Assembly: GCF_056746865.1 (NCBI RefSeq)
Contig: NZ_CM163382.1
Length of the DNA: 64,000 bases
Reading direction: 5' to 3' (one strand)
Shown: piece by piece, positions 3,698-23,339 of the stretch
How positions within the stretch are numbered: the stretch's first letter is position 1
Layout: each line of letters begins with the position of its first letter
Notes under the pieces: generated by a model
What the model saw: only the letters and a program-made list of their open reading frames with translations
Databases searched by the model: none
Told to the model about the DNA's origin: nothing
Position numbers and translations under genes: made by a program

Positions 3698-4132
3698 ATG
3701 CGACAAATCATCGACACCCTGGCGCAGTTGCAGCGCCTGCGGGATAAATCGGTCAAAGACAAAACCGTCGAGCTGGCAAAGCAAAAACAGATTTGTGCGG
3801 GCTATGACAACAATATCAAAGCATTAGGCTACCTGGTGGAGAAAACGTCTGCAGGCGCGGCGGCCTCGGTGGAATCGCTGAAAAACGTTAGCGGCTACAA
3901 AGGCACCCTGCGCAAGGTGATCGCCTGGCAGGAGCAGGAAAAAACGCTGGCCGACATCAAAGCCACGCGAATGCAGAAAAACCTGACGGCGGCGGCGTGC
4001 GAAGAGAAAGTGGTGGCCCTGACGCTGGACGACAAACGCCGCGAGCAGCAGGAAAGCGCCACCGCGAAAGCGCAGAAAGCGGTGGATGACATCGCCGTTC
4101 AGTGCTGGCTGCGGCATAAGTTAGCGGAGTAA
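3698..4132 (+). CDS. lfiJ: Flagellar export chaperone FliJ
   Basis: 144 aa, predicted coiled coil, lying immediately after fliI. Confidence 0.7.
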   Translation: MRQIIDTLAQLQRLRDKSVKDKTVELAKQKQICAGYDNNIKALGYLVEKTSAGAAASVESLKNVSGYKGTLRKVIAWQEQEKTLADIKATRMQKNLTAAACEEKVVALTLDDKRREQQESATAKAQKAVDDIAVQCWLRHKLAE

Positions 4133-4134
4133 CC

Positions 4135-4539
4135 ATGAAAACGGTCATCACCTTCGGCACCTTTGATGTGTTTCACGTCGGTCATCTGCGCCTTTTACAA
4201 CGCGCCCGCAAGCTGGGCGAGCGGCTGCTGGTCGGCGTATCGTCCGACGCCCTGAACATCGCCAAAAAGGGCAGGGCACCGGTTTACCATCAGGATGACC
4301 GCATGGCGATTATCGCCGGTCTGGCGTGCGTGGATGGCGTTTTTCTGGAGGAATCGCTGGAGCAGAAAGCGGAGTATTTGCGGGGGTACGGTGCGGATAT
4401 TTTGGTGATGGGCGATGACTGGGCGGGGAAGTTTGACGATTTCTCGTGTGTCTGTGAGGTGGTCTATTTTCCCCGTACGCCATCGGTATCGACGACGGGG
4501 ATCATTGAGGTGATTAGGGGTAAATCAGCCACCTACTGA
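4135..4539 (+). CDS. Glycerol-3-phosphate cytidylyltransferase-like protein (TagD family; predicted to make CDP-glycerol)
   Basis: 134 aa with an N-terminal GTFDVFHVGHLRLL motif, the HxGH signature of the cytidylyltransferase fold. It starts 3 nt after the lfiJ stop, so it is probably co-transcribed with the flagellar operon. Confidence 0.75.
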   Translation: MKTVITFGTFDVFHVGHLRLLQRARKLGERLLVGVSSDALNIAKKGRAPVYHQDDRMAIIAGLACVDGVFLEESLEQKAEYLRGYGADILVMGDDWAGKFDDFSCVCEVVYFPRTPSVSTTGIIEVIRGKSATY

Positions 4540-4594: not shown

Positions 4595-4690
4595 ATGTTT
4601 AAAAAATCGCGTTTTTTCGACATATCCCCAAAACATGTCGATGGCATAAACGTATTCCAACGACATGTTTAAAAATCGCATTTTATCGAC
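4595..4690. repeat. Direct ~32-bp repeats and CGACAT/ATGTCG inverted repeats in a convergent intergenic region
   Basis: GTTTAAAAAATCGCGTTTTTTCGACATATCCC at about 4597 and GTTTAAAAATCGCATTTTATCGACATATCCC at about 4658, with AACATGTCG...CGACATGTT between them. Confidence 0.6.
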
Positions 4691-7154
4691 ATATCCCTGA
4701 CGATTCCTTGCCCGCCAGCGCCTCCACAATCACCATCGCCGCCCGTTCTCCCGCCTTGCCATCCATAAACGCATCGCAATAGTGATGACGAATCTCCTTA
4801 AGCCGCGCCAGCAACGCACCCCAGTCAAACGCCTCTGACAACAAATAACGCAGTTCCGCAACATCATGAGCCACCGGCAATATTTCGCGGATTTGCTGGT
4901 CGGCGCTTTCGGGCGTGGAGTAACTTTTCTCACCGTCGAGCAACGCTGCCATTTCCGGAAAGTCGAGCAGGATTACCCGCTTATCAACGTGGATAGCATC
5001 GAAAATAAAGCCGCTGTTATCGGTCAGCACGTAATCGGCCTTTGCCAGTAGCGCCAGCGTGTGGTGGACGGAGTCGGTGCGCTGTTTTAAGTGCCTGCGC
5101 GCCAGGGCCAGCGATGCAGCTTCTTCCGGGCGCGAGCAGGTGCCGTGGTGCAGTTTGCAAATCAGATTCACATTGCCACTTAAGCGCCCCAATTTTTCTG
5201 CCCAGTGGGGCAGGGAGCTTAATGCGCCAAACGTGGGGGCGTAGAGCACCGTAGGTTTACGGGAATCGGGTTGAATATTTTCTGGCAGAATGCGGTCAAA
5301 CGTGCCGTTATGCCAGGCGTCGAAGCGCGGGTTGCCGACTGCTTTTGCATTGCCGAAATGCGCCAGCGCCCGCTGGCTGTAGTGGCTGTAACACAAAATG
5401 CGTTGATAAAAACGGTTCCAGTCGGCGTGGTTCCACGTCTCTTTGGCTAAGCCATACATGGCGCGAACGTTCACCGCTGCCAGGCCATTGAGCGCGGGCG
5501 TGTGGTAGGGGCTGACCAGGCATTTCACCCGCTGACCGTGTGCCTGCATTTCAGATAAGCGCATTCCTTTGAGCTGCGGATCGTCGATGCTTTTTAGCGT
5601 CTCCAGCATTTCATCCAGAAACGGTTTAAACACGCGGTCGTTGATCACCAGCGTGCAGCCTTGCCCCTGCGCCTGTAGGGCGGTGATGATTGGGCGGTAG
5701 AGCGCGTAATGGAAAGAAGTTTCCATAAAAAAGCCGATGGTGTCGGCGATGGGTAACGCGGATGGCTTTGTGATAGCAGGTAACTTATTGAAATAGTGAG
5801 CAATATTATCAGTCATTTTTTTCTCGATATCGCTAAAGCCTGGTCGCTGATAACTAAGGCTCGGGTAACAGGCCAGCCATTTGTCGGCGCGTAGCAGCGG
5901 CTGCCAGCCGTCTTCCAGCGAATGCTCATCGTTGCTCATCTGCTGCGCCAGTTGCGGGTAGTAGCGGCGGTTCACCAGATAAGCGCATACCTTGCGGCAG
6001 TCCCGCGCGTGCACCAGCCCCGGCAAACTTTTTAGCATCGTTCCCTGCGAAATTTCGCCGCCGAGGATCATCACCTGCCAGGGAATTTTCGCCAGGCTCG
6101 CCAGCAGCGTGTTCAGCACCTGAATATGTTTCTCCTGCTTGAGAATAACCGCGTCATCTTCCAGCAGCAGATAGTTTTGCCAGCCGTGCTGTTGCGCCAG
6201 GCGCAGCGCCTGCAAGTGCGACTGACGTCGTCCCCGTTGGCCGTTTTGATCTTCACTGGCGGCAAGGCGGGTGATCTTCTCAGGTGGAATATGCAGCAAT
6301 GCCAGTTCTTCACGGATCTGTTGTAAGCGATCCGGGCGTTTATCCAGATTCACAACAACTACCTGATCGATCGTCTGATGGTTGATCCCTTGGTGATGAG
6401 TGGCGTTATGTAGACTCAGATAAGCATTGCGCAGCAGCGGATCGCTGACGATATCTGTAAGCGCCGCGTTTACAGGCGTGCTGGCCCCGAGAATAAAGTC
6501 TTTATCAAAGGTGTTGTGGCTGTGCGAGATACACAGAATCGTGCGCTCGCCGGGCAGTTGTAGCGGGTTAACGCTGAAATTGTCGGTGAAACTTTTCTCT
6601 TCGCCTAAATTGCAATCATCGTCGTAACGGTGCTTTTTCAGGTAGTTACGGTGATAGCAAAAGGTGCCGTTGAGGATGTTATGTGGGCCAAAGCTGCGGC
6701 TTTGAAAGATGCGATTGATGTGGCTGTACCAGATGGGGATCTGGTCGGAGCCGGAGATGAGCGCCCGGTGTTTTTGCATCTTGGCGATGGTCCAGGAGAT
6801 TTTATCTGCCGGGTAGTAGTCGTCATCGTCCATGCAGAGGATGTATTCGCCGCGCGCCAGTTCGTTGAGCATATTGCGTTTTTTGCCCAGCGGCAGTTTT
6901 TCCGGGTGATGAATATAGCGGATGTTAAAGGCTTCCGGCGTGCCATTGGTCAGGCGGTCGATGATGTGTTGATGGCTTTGCGGGGAATCGTCGAGGATGA
7001 TGAGTTCGCGGCGGTCTGCCGGGTAGTCCTGATAGCGGTACATATAAAGCAGGTACGGCAGGAATGCGCTGCGGTTCCAGGTTGGCGTGACGACGCTGAT
7101 GAACGGTTTTTCGCGCTGGGTGGCGAGTGTTTTGATAATGGTTGGTGTTGGCAT
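4683..7154 (-). CDS. Multidomain glycosyltransferase: N-terminal GT2-like, central GT25-like, C-terminal CDP-glycerol glycerophosphotransferase (TagB/TagF)-like
   Basis: The ORF track gives 4683..7226, but its first 24 codons translate the repeat element, so the ATG at 7154 (MPTPTIIK) is the probable start. GT2-like motifs: VVTPTWNRS and LCMDDDDYY (DxD). GT25-like segment: VVVNLDKRPDRL...LLEDDAVI. TagF-like C-terminus: ADYVLTDNSGFIFDAIHVDKRVILLD. Confidence 0.8.
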   Translation of the reverse strand: MPTPTIIKTLATQREKPFISVVTPTWNRSAFLPYLLYMYRYQDYPADRRELIILDDSPQSHQHIIDRLTNGTPEAFNIRYIHHPEKLPLGKKRNMLNELARGEYILCMDDDDYYPADKISWTIAKMQKHRALISGSDQIPIWYSHINRIFQSRSFGPHNILNGTFCYHRNYLKKHRYDDDCNLGEEKSFTDNFSVNPLQLPGERTILCISHSHNTFDKDFILGASTPVNAALTDIVSDPLLRNAYLSLHNATHHQGINHQTIDQVVVVNLDKRPDRLQQIREELALLHIPPEKITRLAASEDQNGQRGRRQSHLQALRLAQQHGWQNYLLLEDDAVILKQEKHIQVLNTLLASLAKIPWQVMILGGEISQGTMLKSLPGLVHARDCRKVCAYLVNRRYYPQLAQQMSNDEHSLEDGWQPLLRADKWLACYPSLSYQRPGFSDIEKKMTDNIAHYFNKLPAITKPSALPIADTIGFFMETSFHYALYRPIITALQAQGQGCTLVINDRVFKPFLDEMLETLKSIDDPQLKGMRLSEMQAHGQRVKCLVSPYHTPALNGLAAVNVRAMYGLAKETWNHADWNRFYQRILCYSHYSQRALAHFGNAKAVGNPRFDAWHNGTFDRILPENIQPDSRKPTVLYAPTFGALSSLPHWAEKLGRLSGNVNLICKLHHGTCSRPEEAASLALARRHLKQRTDSVHHTLALLAKADYVLTDNSGFIFDAIHVDKRVILLDFPEMAALLDGEKSYSTPESADQQIREILPVAHDVAELRYLLSEAFDWGALLARLKEIRHHYCDAFMDGKAGERAAMVIVEALAGKESSGICR

Positions 7155-7198
7155 GGTGTTTGGGTGAGTTAATGGGTGAATGTGATGAATGTGCGTGC

Positions 7199-7313
7199 TG
7201 ATGCCCTCACCCCGACCCTCTCCCACAGGGAGAGGGAGAAAACCAGCGCTGATTTTAACACCGTGCTCGATCGGTTCCCTCGCCCCTTTGGGGAGAGGGG
7301 TAGGGGGAGGGGA
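7199..7313. repeat. G/C-rich nested-palindrome repeat element, copy 1
   Basis: CCCTCACCCCGACCCTCTCCCACAGGGAGAGGG ... CCCCTTTGGGGAGAGGGGTAGGGGGAGGGG, with the same architecture and flanks (GTGCGnnCTGATG) as the copy at 14561..14685. Confidence 0.7.
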
Positions 7314-7332
7314 AAAGCGCGCACAGAGCGAC

Positions 7333-8301
7333 TCACGTCAGCAGCGAAAACGCTGAAAGCAGCGGCTCTGCCGCACATAACGACTGAATTTGCTGGCGAA
7401 TCGACGCAGCATTTTCACTCTCTCGCCAGCGTTCAAACACCGCAAAAAGGGCGAAAATATCCTCCTGTCGCAGCGGTGAACCATCCAGCGTCCATAAACT
7501 GATTAACGTGCGGATAAGATAAAAATCGCACACCAGCGGGCAATAATCTGCTCCGTCTGCCTGCCCAATCACCTCATGGTAAACGCGGTAAATCAGCCAG
7601 TTACGCATCATCCAGGGCGCGGTAGCAAAATGCTGTTGCCAGGTGGTTTGCCACTGTGCCTGAAGCTGATGTTGTAACAGGGCTTCGCTGTTGGCGTCAT
7701 GTAGCGCCAGCAAAGGCATCTGCAACGGCAGCGAAGTTTTGCGCGGGCTTTCCGGCAAAATCGACCAGTCAAACGCACAACTGCCGAGCAGCGTCATCAA
7801 CTGGCGCGCCAGTTGTGGCACGGGCGGCAACTGGGCGAACTGTGCCTGTAGCGTGCCTTTTTTCGCATGATCGGCCAGCGCCTGCGGCAGCGTCGTCAAA
7901 CGGGCAAGAATATCTCCGTCTCTGCCCGGCATTTTACTGGCGCGGGAGAGTAAAATCCCGATGGCATACAGGGAAAGCTCTGGGGTTAAATCGGGGAGCG
8001 TGAGGGTACTCAAAATCACCTGGTTTACTATCGCATCGCGCGCGGAAAGCTCTGCGGCATTTTCTTCCACAGGACGGTAGGTGAGCTGTAAATCAAAGGC
8101 CCTGGCATCGTTGAGTACCGCTTCGCAGCTGGCTGGCTCTGTCAGCATCAGGCTCTGGCGAATCTCGTTTTTCCACACCTTGCGGATGTACAAAGGCGAA
8201 TCGGGATATTGCGTCATAAAATTGCGCACGTATTCCGGTTCGTAACATTCAATAAAACTCATAGGTGGCTTCCAGTCTTTATTACTTTGCGGAATATGCA
8301 A
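7333..8301 (-). CDS. Hypothetical protein (322 aa) at the end of the lfgA-lfgM-lfgN gene string
   Basis: Long ORF co-oriented with lfgN and ending just upstream of the glycosyltransferase gene. I recognise no motif. Confidence 0.5.
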   Translation of the reverse strand: MHIPQSNKDWKPPMSFIECYEPEYVRNFMTQYPDSPLYIRKVWKNEIRQSLMLTEPASCEAVLNDARAFDLQLTYRPVEENAAELSARDAIVNQVILSTLTLPDLTPELSLYAIGILLSRASKMPGRDGDILARLTTLPQALADHAKKGTLQAQFAQLPPVPQLARQLMTLLGSCAFDWSILPESPRKTSLPLQMPLLALHDANSEALLQHQLQAQWQTTWQQHFATAPWMMRNWLIYRVYHEVIGQADGADYCPLVCDFYLIRTLISLWTLDGSPLRQEDIFALFAVFERWRESENAASIRQQIQSLCAAEPLLSAFSLLT

Positions 8302-8388
8302 TAAGCGTGCCGGGAATTTTTATAATCAAAAACAAAGGATTGTGAATCAGGCGGAAAATCCGTTTCCGCTATGGGGAAGGTGTTCGCG

Positions 8389-8817
8389 TTATTCCTGATA
8401 CAGAAAATCTGCTTCGTTGCCTAAAAACGACTGGATAAATTCATACTGGCGAATCAACAGATCACCGTTTTTGTCGTTGTAGGTTTTGCAGCGTTCCGCT
8501 TTTTGCTCAAGGCGTTGCCACAACTGTTGTGCTGCCGCTTTTTGTACCGCCGGAAGCCAGGCAAACACCTGCGCCAGACCGTCACGATTTACGCTAACAC
8601 CGAGCATTTTCAGCAGGCTATGCCGCTGATGGCTATGTCCATGCAACTGCTCATAGTGATGGGTTATCTCATCGTTTACCGCCAGCAACTCTTCGCTGGC
8701 GCGGCGAATCATGCAGATCCGCTGACGTTGGAGAAGTTCGCGCAGGGAATCATACAGCGCGTCGTCGTCACGAATTCCCTGCAACAACGCCTTCACCTGT
8801 TGTAACCGGATACTCAC
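8389..8817 (-). CDS. lfgN: Flagellar export chaperone FlgN-like
   Basis: 142 aa, helical, in the flgA-flgM-flgN position. Confidence 0.65.
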   Translation of the reverse strand: MSIRLQQVKALLQGIRDDDALYDSLRELLQRQRICMIRRASEELLAVNDEITHHYEQLHGHSHQRHSLLKMLGVSVNRDGLAQVFAWLPAVQKAAAQQLWQRLEQKAERCKTYNDKNGDLLIRQYEFIQSFLGNEADFLYQE

Positions 8818-8829
8818 TTCATCGGCCTC

Positions 8830-9108
8830 TTAGTTCTGGAAAAAACTCAGCATATCGCTGGCTAACTGTTCGGTGTCCACTTGCAGGCTGCCGGAGGCCA
8901 GCATCGCCTGCATTTGCGCCACTTTATCGCTGTCGATATCGCTCTCTTGCTGGTCGTTCAGTGTTTGCTGGGCAGACTGCAATCCCGCCTGGGTAATGTC
9001 GTCGGCGCTTAGCGTCGTGGCGGTGGTCGCCGTGCTTTTGCGCGACTGGCTGGAGCCTGCCGTTGTGGCTGTCGGGCGATTGCCTGGCATAGTCGGGGTG
9101 ATTTTCAT
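8830..9108 (-). CDS. lfgM: Anti-sigma-28 factor FlgM-like
   Basis: 92 aa with a Ser/Thr-rich disordered N-terminus and a conserved FlgM-like C-terminal helix, lying between flgA and flgN homologs. Confidence 0.7.
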   Translation of the reverse strand: MKITPTMPGNRPTATTAGSSQSRKSTATTATTLSADDITQAGLQSAQQTLNDQQESDIDSDKVAQMQAMLASGSLQVDTEQLASDMLSFFQN

Positions 9109-9188: not shown

Positions 9189-9926
9189 TTACTCCGCGCT
9201 TACCGTCGTCACCACGCCGCTTTCCGCCACCATCGCGCTGATGACCCGCTGGCTGCTGGCGTTACGCACTTTCACCATCTCGCCTTTGCGACCATTTTTC
9301 AGCGCCACGCCGGGCATCGAGGCGGTGATCCCCGCGCTCTGGTAAACAATCATCACCGGCTGATCGCGTTCGACCAGCACTGGCGAAACCAGCTCTTCTT
9401 TGGTGATGGGCCTGCCCGGTTGCAGCGCGTGTTTACTGCTGAAACCAATCGCGTCATCGGGATCCATCAACACATTGCGGCGCTGGGCGCTGACGTTGTA
9501 GGGCTTCAACTCCACATCATTTGCCGTGAGCGGCGTGTCGCGGGCAACCAGTGACTTCGCCATTACCACCGGCACCAGAACATCCGGGCGCACCGCCACG
9601 TTCATCTGCCAGCTTTGCGGGCAACTGACGGTGAAGTTCATCCGGTTGAGGGTGATTTCCGCAGGCGAAGTGAGCGTGACGCCGGGTGTAGTCGCACAGG
9701 GGGCGGCGGTCGCAATCTGCGAGGGAATATAGACCTTAAAGGTGTAGCGATAGTCATGCCAGCGCCGCTGTTGCGCCAGCGATTCAATTTCCTGGCTCGC
9801 GGCATTTAGCACCTGGGCGTTGACTTGTTCCCGCGCGCTGTGTTGCACGGGGTGGACGGCGGCGTAGCCCGGTAAGGCCAGCACCAGGAGGAAGAACAAC
9901 TTCCGCCTGCAAAATTGAAAACTCAT
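9189..9926 (-). CDS. lfgA: Flagellar P-ring assembly chaperone FlgA
   Basis: 245 aa with a signal peptide (LFFLLVLALPGYAA), divergent from flgB as in canonical flagellar loci. Confidence 0.8.
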   Translation of the reverse strand: MSFQFCRRKLFFLLVLALPGYAAVHPVQHSAREQVNAQVLNAASQEIESLAQQRRWHDYRYTFKVYIPSQIATAAPCATTPGVTLTSPAEITLNRMNFTVSCPQSWQMNVAVRPDVLVPVVMAKSLVARDTPLTANDVELKPYNVSAQRRNVLMDPDDAIGFSSKHALQPGRPITKEELVSPVLVERDQPVMIVYQSAGITASMPGVALKNGRKGEMVKVRNASSQRVISAMVAESGVVTTVSAE

Positions 9927-22424: not shown

Positions 22425-23339
22425 ATGTTATCTATTAACACCAATAACGCCTCAATGGCCGCCGTTAATGCAATCAGCAAAAGCAGCTCTTCTCTGTCTA
22501 CATCTATGGAACGCCTGGCGACAGGTAACCGGATTAACTCTTCTGCCGATGACGCCGCAGGCAAACAAATTGCTAACCGTCTGACAGCACAGTCCAGCGG
22601 TATGGGTGTTGCGCTGAGCAACATCAATGATGCCACCGCGATGCTGCAAACCGCTGACAGCATGTTCGACGAAATGTCTGACGTGCTGGGTCGTATGAAA
22701 GACCTGTCAACTCAGGCAGCGAACGGCACCTACAGCGACGACGACCTGCAGGCGATGCAGGACGAATACGACGAACTGGGCCAGCAGATGTCTGACATGC
22801 TGCAAAACACCACTTACGGCGGCACCAACCTGTTCGGTGTTTCCGGTACCAGCAACACCGGTACTGACGGTCTGTTCCAGAGCGCGGTAACTTTCCAGGT
22901 GGGCGCGGAATCTTCCGACACCATGACCGTGAATATTTCAAGCCAGCTGAATACCCTGGTGACGGATCTTTCTGCAATCAGCAACTCCTTTAGTGCGGAT
23001 CAGGCTGACACCACTGGCACCGCAGGCGTTTCTGGCGGTACTGAGCTGACTGCGTCTGGCTCGGCTAACCAGATGATCACCAGCATCTCTACCGCGATGG
23101 ATGACGTGTCTCAGATCCAGTCCAAGCTGGGTGCCTCTATCAACCGTCTGAACGACACTGCCAACAACCTGACCAGTATGCAAGACAACACCGAAGTCGC
23201 TATCGGTAACATCATGGATACCGACTACGCGACGGAAGCGTCCAATATGACCAAACAGCAAGTGCTGATGCAGACTGGCATCACCATGCTGAAACAGTCC
23301 AACAGCATGTCCAGCATGGTTTCCAGCCTGCTGCAGTAA
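22425..23339 (+). CDS. lafA: Lateral flagellin
   Basis: The ATG at 22425 follows an AAGGAG ribosome-binding site. It has the flagellin N-terminus (MLSINTNNASMAAVNA...RLATGNRINSSADDAAG) and C-terminus (MTKQQVLMQTGITMLKQSNSM), about 304 aa. Confidence 0.9.
   Translation: MLSINTNNASMAAVNAISKSSSSLSTSMERLATGNRINSSADDAAGKQIANRLTAQSSGMGVALSNINDATAMLQTADSMFDEMSDVLGRMKDLSTQAANGTYSDDDLQAMQDEYDELGQQMSDMLQNTTYGGTNLFGVSGTSNTGTDGLFQSAVTFQVGAESSDTMTVNISSQLNTLVTDLSAISNSFSADQADTTGTAGVSGGTELTASGSANQMITSISTAMDDVSQIQSKLGASINRLNDTANNLTSMQDNTEVAIGNIMDTDYATEASNMTKQQVLMQTGITMLKQSNSMSSMVSSLLQ

Follow-up and report, generated by a model that had tools for sequence, protein, structure and literature searches.

The 64,000-nucleotide (nt) stretch of contig NZ_CM163382.1 (RefSeq assembly GCF_056746865.1) analyzed here, referred to below as the window, represents Flag-2, the second, lateral-type flagellar locus of Escherichia coli. 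The open reading frame (ORF) at positions 7333 to 8301 is lafV, an already catalogued Flag-2 gene whose name reportedly goes back to Ren et al. 2005. It encodes a protein that consists of the FliB_C domain only and lacks the ligands of the FliB iron-sulfur cluster, and the gene is maintained by selection and strictly linked to a gene for a GT2 glycosyltransferase. The sequence-only reading had assigned a protein of 322 amino acids (aa) to this position, and an open frame of that length, starting with TTG at 8301, does exist on the minus strand; however, the supported gene covers positions 7333 to 8262 and encodes 309 aa plus a stop codon. Its start was placed at ATG 8262 because the full-length homologues (309 to 315 aa) all align from this internal methionine, because the RefSeq coding sequence of the lafV allele is 930 nt long and begins at the ATG, and because a Shine-Dalgarno-like GGAAG, read from the minus strand at positions 8269 to 8273, lies 6 nt 5' of it. 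The 13 codons of the extension (positions 8263 to 8301), which no homologue has, are probably untranslated.

Upstream of lafV and in the same orientation are lfgN (positions 8389 to 8817), which encodes a FlgN-family chaperone (PF05130, 2.6e-19) and is separated from the lafV start by 126 nt, lfgM (8830 to 9108), encoding an anti-sigma-28 factor (PF04316 and TIGR03824), and lfgA (9189 to 9926), encoding a P-ring chaperone (PF13144 and TIGR03170). Downstream, also on the minus strand, is the partner gene (4683 to 7154), the product of which is an 823-aa glycosyltransferase with a GT2 domain (PF00535, 4e-18). Since this gene starts at 7154 and not at 7226, the gap between it and lafV is 178 nt. 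Both sets of neighbors had been named in the sequence-only reading, and their identities were confirmed by Pfam and NCBIfam. On the plus strand, positions 4135 to 4539 encode a TagD-like glycerol-3-phosphate cytidylyltransferase (PF01467, 2e-20; TIGR01518, 1.6e-33, below its cut-off), which is the likely supplier of cytidine diphosphate (CDP)-glycerol. Variable region 1 of the window holds only these three genes, i.e., the tagD-like gene, the glycosyltransferase gene, and lafV, and lfiJ (3698 to 4132) lies beyond them. The lateral flagellin gene lafA (22425 to 23339, plus strand), the product of which is the presumed substrate of modification, was identified by tblastn, by its translation, and by the RefSeq name in strain EC958.

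De Maayer et al. 2020 (PMC6993521) used the name lafV for this gene, assigned it to flag-2 variable region 1, and distinguished ten LafV types (LafV1 to LafV10), all of 228 to 318 aa, in 342 of 592 flag-2 loci. Located between lfiJ and lfgN, homologous to Enterobacterales LafV proteins, and with 309 aa within the range of about 300 to 318 aa, the window protein belongs to this family, and by its size, its taxa, and the 828-aa GT2-1-type partner it is most likely LafV6 of that study. The gene is missing from about 42% of flag-2 loci (PMC6993521). Because it thus belongs to the variable cargo and not to the conserved core, a role in the assembly of the lateral flagellum, which had been proposed from the sequence, is unsupported. 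The product name given by RefSeq to the exact window allele is "hypothetical protein"; many other lafV alleles carry the NCBI name lysine-N-methylase.

Among 5,426 complete E. coli genomes, 1,278 carry lafV, mostly at 90 to 95% identity, and at least 80% of the gene is present in one piece in 1,277 of these carriers. The DNA of the window ORF is 100% identical in 55 complete genomes, including that of strain 118UI. LafV is 84 to 92% identical to proteins of Escherichia and Pseudocitrobacter and 51 to 57% identical to those of Citrobacter and Phytobacter. An exhaustive HMMER search yielded many 50%-identity clusters of LafV relatives of 297 to 324 aa, and such short FliB_C forms, of near-constant length, were found in both beta- and gammaproteobacteria. 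The ratio of nonsynonymous to synonymous substitutions (dN/dS) against the EC958 allele was 0.20 for lafV, compared with 0.18 for the glycosyltransferase gene, 0.11 for lfgN, and 0.03 for lfgC. lafV is a real gene under purifying selection. In E. coli FDAARGOS_944 (L010:2916-5151), the pair is inactivated as a whole, with lafV split by the insertion sequence ISEc60 and a frameshift in the adjacent glycosyltransferase gene.

No recognizable motif had been noted in the ORF, and our Pfam scan gave no match either, because the Pfam copy used was without PF27117 (FliB_C). A C-terminal FliB-family domain is, however, present. The sole curated match of LafV was to NF038110 (FliB), with 43.4 bits against a cut-off of 85, and it pairs residues 43 to 297 (322-aa numbering) with profile positions 106 to 367 of 373; a 92%-identical allele (P0001) scored 36.7 bits. 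True FliB proteins, in contrast, score 263 to 286 bits over profile positions 1 to 372, and LafV has no full-length match at or above 85 bits. PF27117 is precomputed on most of the listed homologues, among them one that is 92% identical and all those of at least about 300 aa, and is lacking on seven truncated fragments; the membership of the window protein is therefore by proxy of these homologues. LafV aligns with FliB over the ~260 C-terminal residues, and the short and long forms also have their first ~12 residues (an IxxYxPEFV strand) in common.

The segments between these two conserved parts set LafV apart. In the long FliB proteins (392 to 405 aa), a CX4CX3CC motif is followed by a Cys-rich segment of ~75 aa, with eight conserved cysteines in all, and one long FliB gives a weak match to PF03692 (CxxCxxCC). 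This second segment is deleted in all short forms, and no PF03692 match was obtained with LafV. CX4CX3CC is missing from the window protein, which has two scattered cysteines in its first 60 residues, and is likewise missing throughout its clade (Escherichia, Citrobacter, Enterobacter, Phytobacter, and Leminorella); in some orthologues the entire sequence contains only one or two cysteines. Neither the window protein nor its clade contains a group of at least three clustered cysteines that could ligate a cluster, as in radical-SAM (S-adenosylmethionine) or Dph2-like enzymes. In FliB, the CX4CX3CC motif ligates an essential [4Fe-4S] cluster, and a C17A/C22A/C26A/C27A mutant lost both the cluster and all methylation activity (PMC8598068). 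Without the motif and the second Cys segment, LafV therefore cannot hold the cluster of FliB. A CxCxxC remnant is kept only by a sister clade of short forms. In a distance tree (no bootstrap), the short forms made up one group, sister to the long forms of Budviciaceae and split into cysteine-less and CxCxxC proteins. The most conserved motif of the family, NYLxYRLYHDxFP, is also altered in E. coli, where it is replaced by NWLIYRVYHEVIG (window positions 7563 to 7620, residues about 215 to 233), and E. coli alleles have a 4-residue deletion just past this site.

The genomic context of LafV relatives was determined by look-ups for diverse short forms and by a scan of relatives with one genome per species, and the neighbors were annotated by BLAST against the window proteins. 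In all ~30 loci examined, from Escherichia, Citrobacter, Enterobacter, Phytobacter, Leminorella, Cedecea, Serratia, a symbiont, and Burkholderia pseudomallei, a homologous GT2 gene adjoins the short FliB_C gene on the same strand, without exception. The partners beside other LafV proteins are 40 to 50% identical to the window enzyme over about 450 aa. Two gene orders occur, lfgN > lafV > glycosyltransferase in the cysteine-less clade and lfiJ > glycosyltransferase > lafV in the CxCxxC clade, and adjacency is kept in both. The gaps between the two genes range from an overlap (locus L005) through 4, 20, 35, and 37 nt in called genes to 46 to 48 nt in other E. coli alleles. Published strain counts, 219 for LafV6 versus 222 for GT2-1 and 112 for LafV1 versus 99 for GT2-3 (PMC6993521), fit a one-to-one pairing. 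We propose here the GT2-FliB_C gene pair of lateral-flagellum loci as a grouping to which the window pair belongs; it is not a curated family. The location of lafV in variable region 1 and the homologous GT2 gene beside it in every locus support the earlier suggestion that the protein may take part in a flagellin modification pathway.

Burkholderia was reached by a search from the glycosyltransferase side. In the second-flagellum locus of B. pseudomallei (contig LWYZ01000117.1; L035:6001-12668), the GT2 gene overlaps a 311-aa FliB_C gene of the CxCxxC type by 4 nt, and genes for a class I SAM methyltransferase, a haloacid dehalogenase (HAD) enzyme, a nucleotidyltransferase-like protein, a Glyphos_transf protein, a 296-aa flagellin, and MotA follow in this order. 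Apart from its additional FliB_C gene, this locus matches almost completely the gene sets for flagellin glycans of C. difficile (type A) and P. aeruginosa (b-type).

The long, cluster-bearing relatives in Budviciaceae (Limnobaculum, Leminorella, and Pragia; 403 to 405 aa, C-x4-C-x-C-x-CC) are the closest long relatives of LafV, and no flagellar or glycosyltransferase genes were seen near them in five loci (L006:8001-9218, L030, L032, L033, and L034). In L006, the only one of these loci with called genes, the long-form gene lies between groES and a radical-SAM gene that is beside efp and that we take to be epmB. Leminorella grimontii has a long form as well as a short LafV, the latter in its flag-2 locus. 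The substrate of the long Budviciaceae proteins may be something other than flagellin. In flag-1 loci, a FliB island and a glycosylation island mostly exclude each other (PMC4875605). The setting of lafV is not that of a fliB gene beside a flagellin gene and without glycosylation genes: it lies ~14 kb from lafA and next to the glycosyltransferase gene.

In addition to its GT2 domain, the window glycosyltransferase has a weak GT25-like part in its middle (PF01755, subthreshold) and a weak TagB/Glyphos_transf-like part at its C terminus (PF04464, subthreshold). In P. aeruginosa, PA1091 combines a glycosyltransferase and a CD0244 homologue in one gene (PMC11833859). By analogy with the PA1091 and CD0240-CD0244 systems, the TagB-like part of the fusion and the tagD-like gene predict a sugar-phospho-glycerol decoration on Ser or Thr residues of LafA.

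The sequence of the presumed substrate is in line with such a target. E. coli LafA has six lysines, at positions 19, 47, 92, 234, 277, and 290, so that residues 93 to 233 contain none, and Ser plus Thr make up 33% of this region. The lysines that FliB methylates are surface residues of the variable flagellin domains and not of D0/D1 (PMC8598068), and E. coli LafA therefore offers no obvious target for a FliB-like activity. The window and EC958 (L037:3564-4478) encode the same LafA sequence (100% identity), and the 32 of 915 nt that differ are all synonymous, compared with protein differences of 3 to 9% for neighboring genes. LafA is thus under very strong constraint, although no laboratory expression of this flagellin has been observed.

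Structure prediction, which had been proposed as a check of the ORF, gave a confident model but no solved structural relative. The AlphaFold2 (AF2) model of LafV, made from a 46-sequence alignment, had a predicted local distance difference test (pLDDT) score of 93 and a predicted template modeling (pTM) score of 0.91, and its lowest confidence was in residues 231 to 240 (mean pLDDT, 76), by the site of the altered motif. Neither a Rossmann-like or SET fold nor an SAM-binding motif was recognized in the AF2 model or by the Pfam and NCBIfam scans, and a sequence search of Protein Data Bank (PDB) chains returned only a chance match to kinesin (E value, 0.012). LafV (309 aa) was also modeled by AF2 as one chain with residues 1 to 470 of its own glycosyltransferase, joined by a 30-residue Gly-Ser linker and with 19 loci aligned. 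The 809-residue chain had a pLDDT of 80.6 and a pTM of 0.74, with disorder confined to the linker and the termini. As this pTM exceeds the ceiling of ~0.5 that we estimate for two proteins not confidently placed together, the model suggests that LafV and the glycosyltransferase form a complex.

We propose, with a probability of roughly 45%, that LafV is a cluster-less, noncatalytic derivative of FliB that acts as the partner of a flagellin glycosyltransferase and not as a lysine methylase. According to this proposal, LafV would be a pseudoenzyme descended from FliB that binds the glycosyltransferase as a flagellin-recognition or scaffolding subunit and, in the cytoplasm before export, presents the Ser/Thr-rich central region of LafA for O-glycosylation. 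The TagB-like part of the glycosyltransferase would then add phospho-glycerol to the sugar from the CDP-glycerol made by the TagD-like enzyme, and LafV would methylate no lysines. The separate class I SAM methyltransferase beside the B. pseudomallei FliB_C gene is also counted in favor of this reading. A broader version is possible, but we put it forward only tentatively: FliB_C may be a flagellin-recognition module that in FliB is fused to an iron-sulfur catalytic head, this head may have been shed in two steps and lost in the lateral systems of gamma- and betaproteobacteria, and the remnant may now be a subunit that a widespread GT2-type flagellin O-glycosyltransferase requires for its specificity. 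Hundreds of "lysine-N-methylase" database entries would then be misannotated, at least in the cysteine-less Escherichia/Citrobacter clade.

Several points weigh against the partner role. The polar residues common to FliB and LafV are kept in the window protein (R35, S37, N80, N221, Y225, Y228, and H229), and judged from the sequence they could belong to a site for catalysis or ligand binding and not to a protein interface. Because the sister clade keeps CxCxxC, its members may still hold a metal centre, and the whole family may be enzymatic. LafA homologues of related genera have 0 to 4 central lysines, usually 1 or 2 and most often one, and the lysine argument therefore holds for E. coli and not for the whole family; the comparison of central-lysine counts with LafV type covers the Escherichia/Citrobacter side plus one Burkholderia example and is anecdotal. 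That LafV binds flagellin or the glycosyltransferase is something we infer, and the pTM argument for the latter is indirect, coming from a single tethered chain, without a control, and from a shallow paired alignment of 19 sequences. Under laboratory conditions, finally, neither Flag-2 expression nor LafA was detected in E. coli EC958 (PMC4637896).

The alternative that survives best is that LafV is a flagellin lysine-N-methylase acting on LafA, with catalysis or SAM binding located within FliB_C and no N-terminal cluster needed. The homology to FliB over about 260 residues, the polar residues and the region of the NYLxYRLYHDxFP motif shared with it, and the NCBI names of many alleles all agree with this function, which was also predicted in PMC6993521. 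However, all four cluster ligands are gone, with a single cysteine left in some orthologues, and FliB is inactive without these ligands (PMC8598068). The NF038110 score is half of the equivalog cut-off, the exact allele is a hypothetical protein in RefSeq, and the AF2 model has neither a Rossmann or SET fold nor a structural match. In E. coli, moreover, the methylase would meet a central LafA region free of lysine, and the window allele itself deviates from the family motif, with NWLIYRVYHEVIG in its place and the 4-aa deletion. We regard this function as unlikely.

A second alternative keeps LafV an enzyme but moves it to the glycan pathway, where it would modify or transfer the sugar-phosphate decoration, or act on its donor, through a FliB_C site unrelated to lysine methylation. 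The strict linkage to glycosyltransferase and polyol-phosphate genes and the conserved polar residues can be read in this way, and a fold without known relatives leaves such chemistry possible. Yet the Pfam and NCBIfam scans recognized no cofactor- or nucleotide-binding motif, the studied clusters of C. difficile and P. aeruginosa are described without such an extra gene (PMC11833859), and FliB, the only characterized relative, acts on a protein substrate and not on a sugar. This role appears decidedly unlikely.

It is very improbable that LafV is a decaying, functionless fliB remnant in a locus with little or no expression in E. coli. The loss of the N-terminal catalytic segments, the lack of Flag-2 expression in EC958 (PMC4637896), the strain with an insertion-split lafV and a frameshifted glycosyltransferase gene, and the departure of the window allele from the most conserved motif could be cited for such a remnant. 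Against it are the dN/dS of 0.20, the full-length gene in 1,277 of 1,278 carrier genomes, the near-constant length of short forms (about 300 to 324 aa) across many 50%-identity clusters of beta- and gammaproteobacteria, and the high-confidence predicted fold; the dN/dS and the conservation of length led us to reject a decaying pseudogene as the main explanation. Two other origins of the short form were rejected as well. A split gene with its N-terminal domain encoded nearby does not fit gaps of 126 and 178 nt in a region with no genes other than tagD, the glycosyltransferase gene, and lafV. A frameshifted full-length fliB is at odds with the end of lfgN, only 126 nt away from the lafV start, and with a short architecture shared by all relatives.

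That lafV and the glycosyltransferase gene are cotranscribed is plausible for the other alleles and species, judging from gaps that range from an overlap to about 48 nt. The window allele differs from these tight-gap alleles in that its 178-nt gap contains an inserted inverted repeat with terminator-like hairpins (positions 7190 to 7325; 51-nt arms at 7190 to 7240 and 7275 to 7325). This repeat is a dispersed intergenic element of E. coli, found in 4,731 of 5,426 genomes with a median of 11 copies per genome, and it is missing from the EC958 allele, in which the gap is 46 nt. The terminator-like sites reached only ~2 times the shuffled expectation and are therefore not decisive. A sigma-70 promoter scan found no site in the lfgN-lafV gap or the lafV-glycosyltransferase gap, and an Rfam scan of positions 6900 to 8500 returned nothing but subthreshold, hairpin-like matches attributable to chance, located on the intergenic repeat and within the gene. 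Just past the lfgN stop codon, at positions 8341 to 8362, there is a 7-bp stem-loop (GCGGAAA...TTTCCGC) that has no T-run and was not called by the terminator scan.

lafV was already named, catalogued, and included in a Pfam family, with a nominal function in databases; what is new is the reinterpretation of that function, which we infer. That LafV has lost the segment essential for FliB and is in a fixed pairing with GT2, from Enterobacterales to Burkholderia, appears to be unstated in the literature searched. Both the name "lysine-N-methylase" and the published inference of Flag-2 flagellin methylation rest solely on homology to FliB, and this homology excludes the part that is essential for FliB catalysis. 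Should LafV prove to be the glycosyltransferase partner, an enzyme scaffold would clearly have been put to new use as a noncatalytic subunit, and the part of FliB that recognizes flagellin would be indicated. The GT2 plus FliB_C module would also predict glycosylated lateral flagella in Enterobacterales and Burkholderia, and its reach would include the pathogens E. coli sequence type 131 (ST131) and B. pseudomallei. If LafV instead proves to be an active methylase, FliB-type methyl transfer would work without the cluster, which would be informative as well.

The closest described counterpart of the window ORF is the LafV family itself (PMC6993521), with which it shares the position between lfiJ and lfgN, a length of about 311 aa, and an identity of 52 to 57% to Citrobacter members. 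In that study, which appeared before the FliB cluster was discovered, LafV is taken as a FliB orthologue and used to argue for flagellin methylation; the missing N-terminal segments and the one-to-one GT2 pairing are not mentioned. Like LafV, FliB of Salmonella enterica (NF038110; PMC8598068) is encoded in a flagellar locus and is a cytoplasmic, flagellin-related accessory protein rather than a structural part, and the two have in common FliB_C (~260 residues) and the first ~12 residues. LafV differs from FliB in that it has no CX4CX3CC and no second Cys segment and is about 90 residues shorter. In addition, the FliB gene adjoins fliC, usually without glycosyltransferases, whereas the LafV gene always adjoins one. 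The CxCxxC short forms of Cedecea, Serratia quinivorans, and the second flagellar cluster of B. pseudomallei resemble LafV in length, fold family, and the adjacent co-oriented glycosyltransferase gene, but they have three clustered cysteines with a fourth ~25 residues further on, so that a metal centre is possible, and their gene order is glycosyltransferase and then FliB_C.

The PA1088-PA1091 genes of P. aeruginosa PAO1 and CD0240-CD0244 of C. difficile 630 (PMC11833859) resemble the lafV locus in having a glycosyltransferase fused to or beside a CD0244/TagB-like phosphotransferase, together with a nucleotidyltransferase, and the Burkholderia FliB_C locus further shares with them an HAD enzyme and a class I methyltransferase. 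From this gene content, a sugar-phosphate-X decoration of Ser or Thr residues of flagellin is predicted. Unlike the lafV locus, these sets have no FliB_C gene as described in PMC11833859. The donor probably differs as well, being CDP-glycerol at the lafV locus instead of CDP-(methyl)threonine. The likeness to PA1091 is limited by the fact that the GT25-like and TagB-like matches of the window enzyme are below the Pfam thresholds. FlmG of Caulobacter crescentus is reportedly a modular protein in which a flagellin-binding tetratricopeptide repeat domain, fused to a glycosyltransferase domain, directs the latter to cytoplasmic flagellins. LafV, a separate protein of unrelated fold and without sequence relationship to the flagellin glycosyltransferase FlmG (PMC7591256), would be comparable to that binding domain by functional analogy only.

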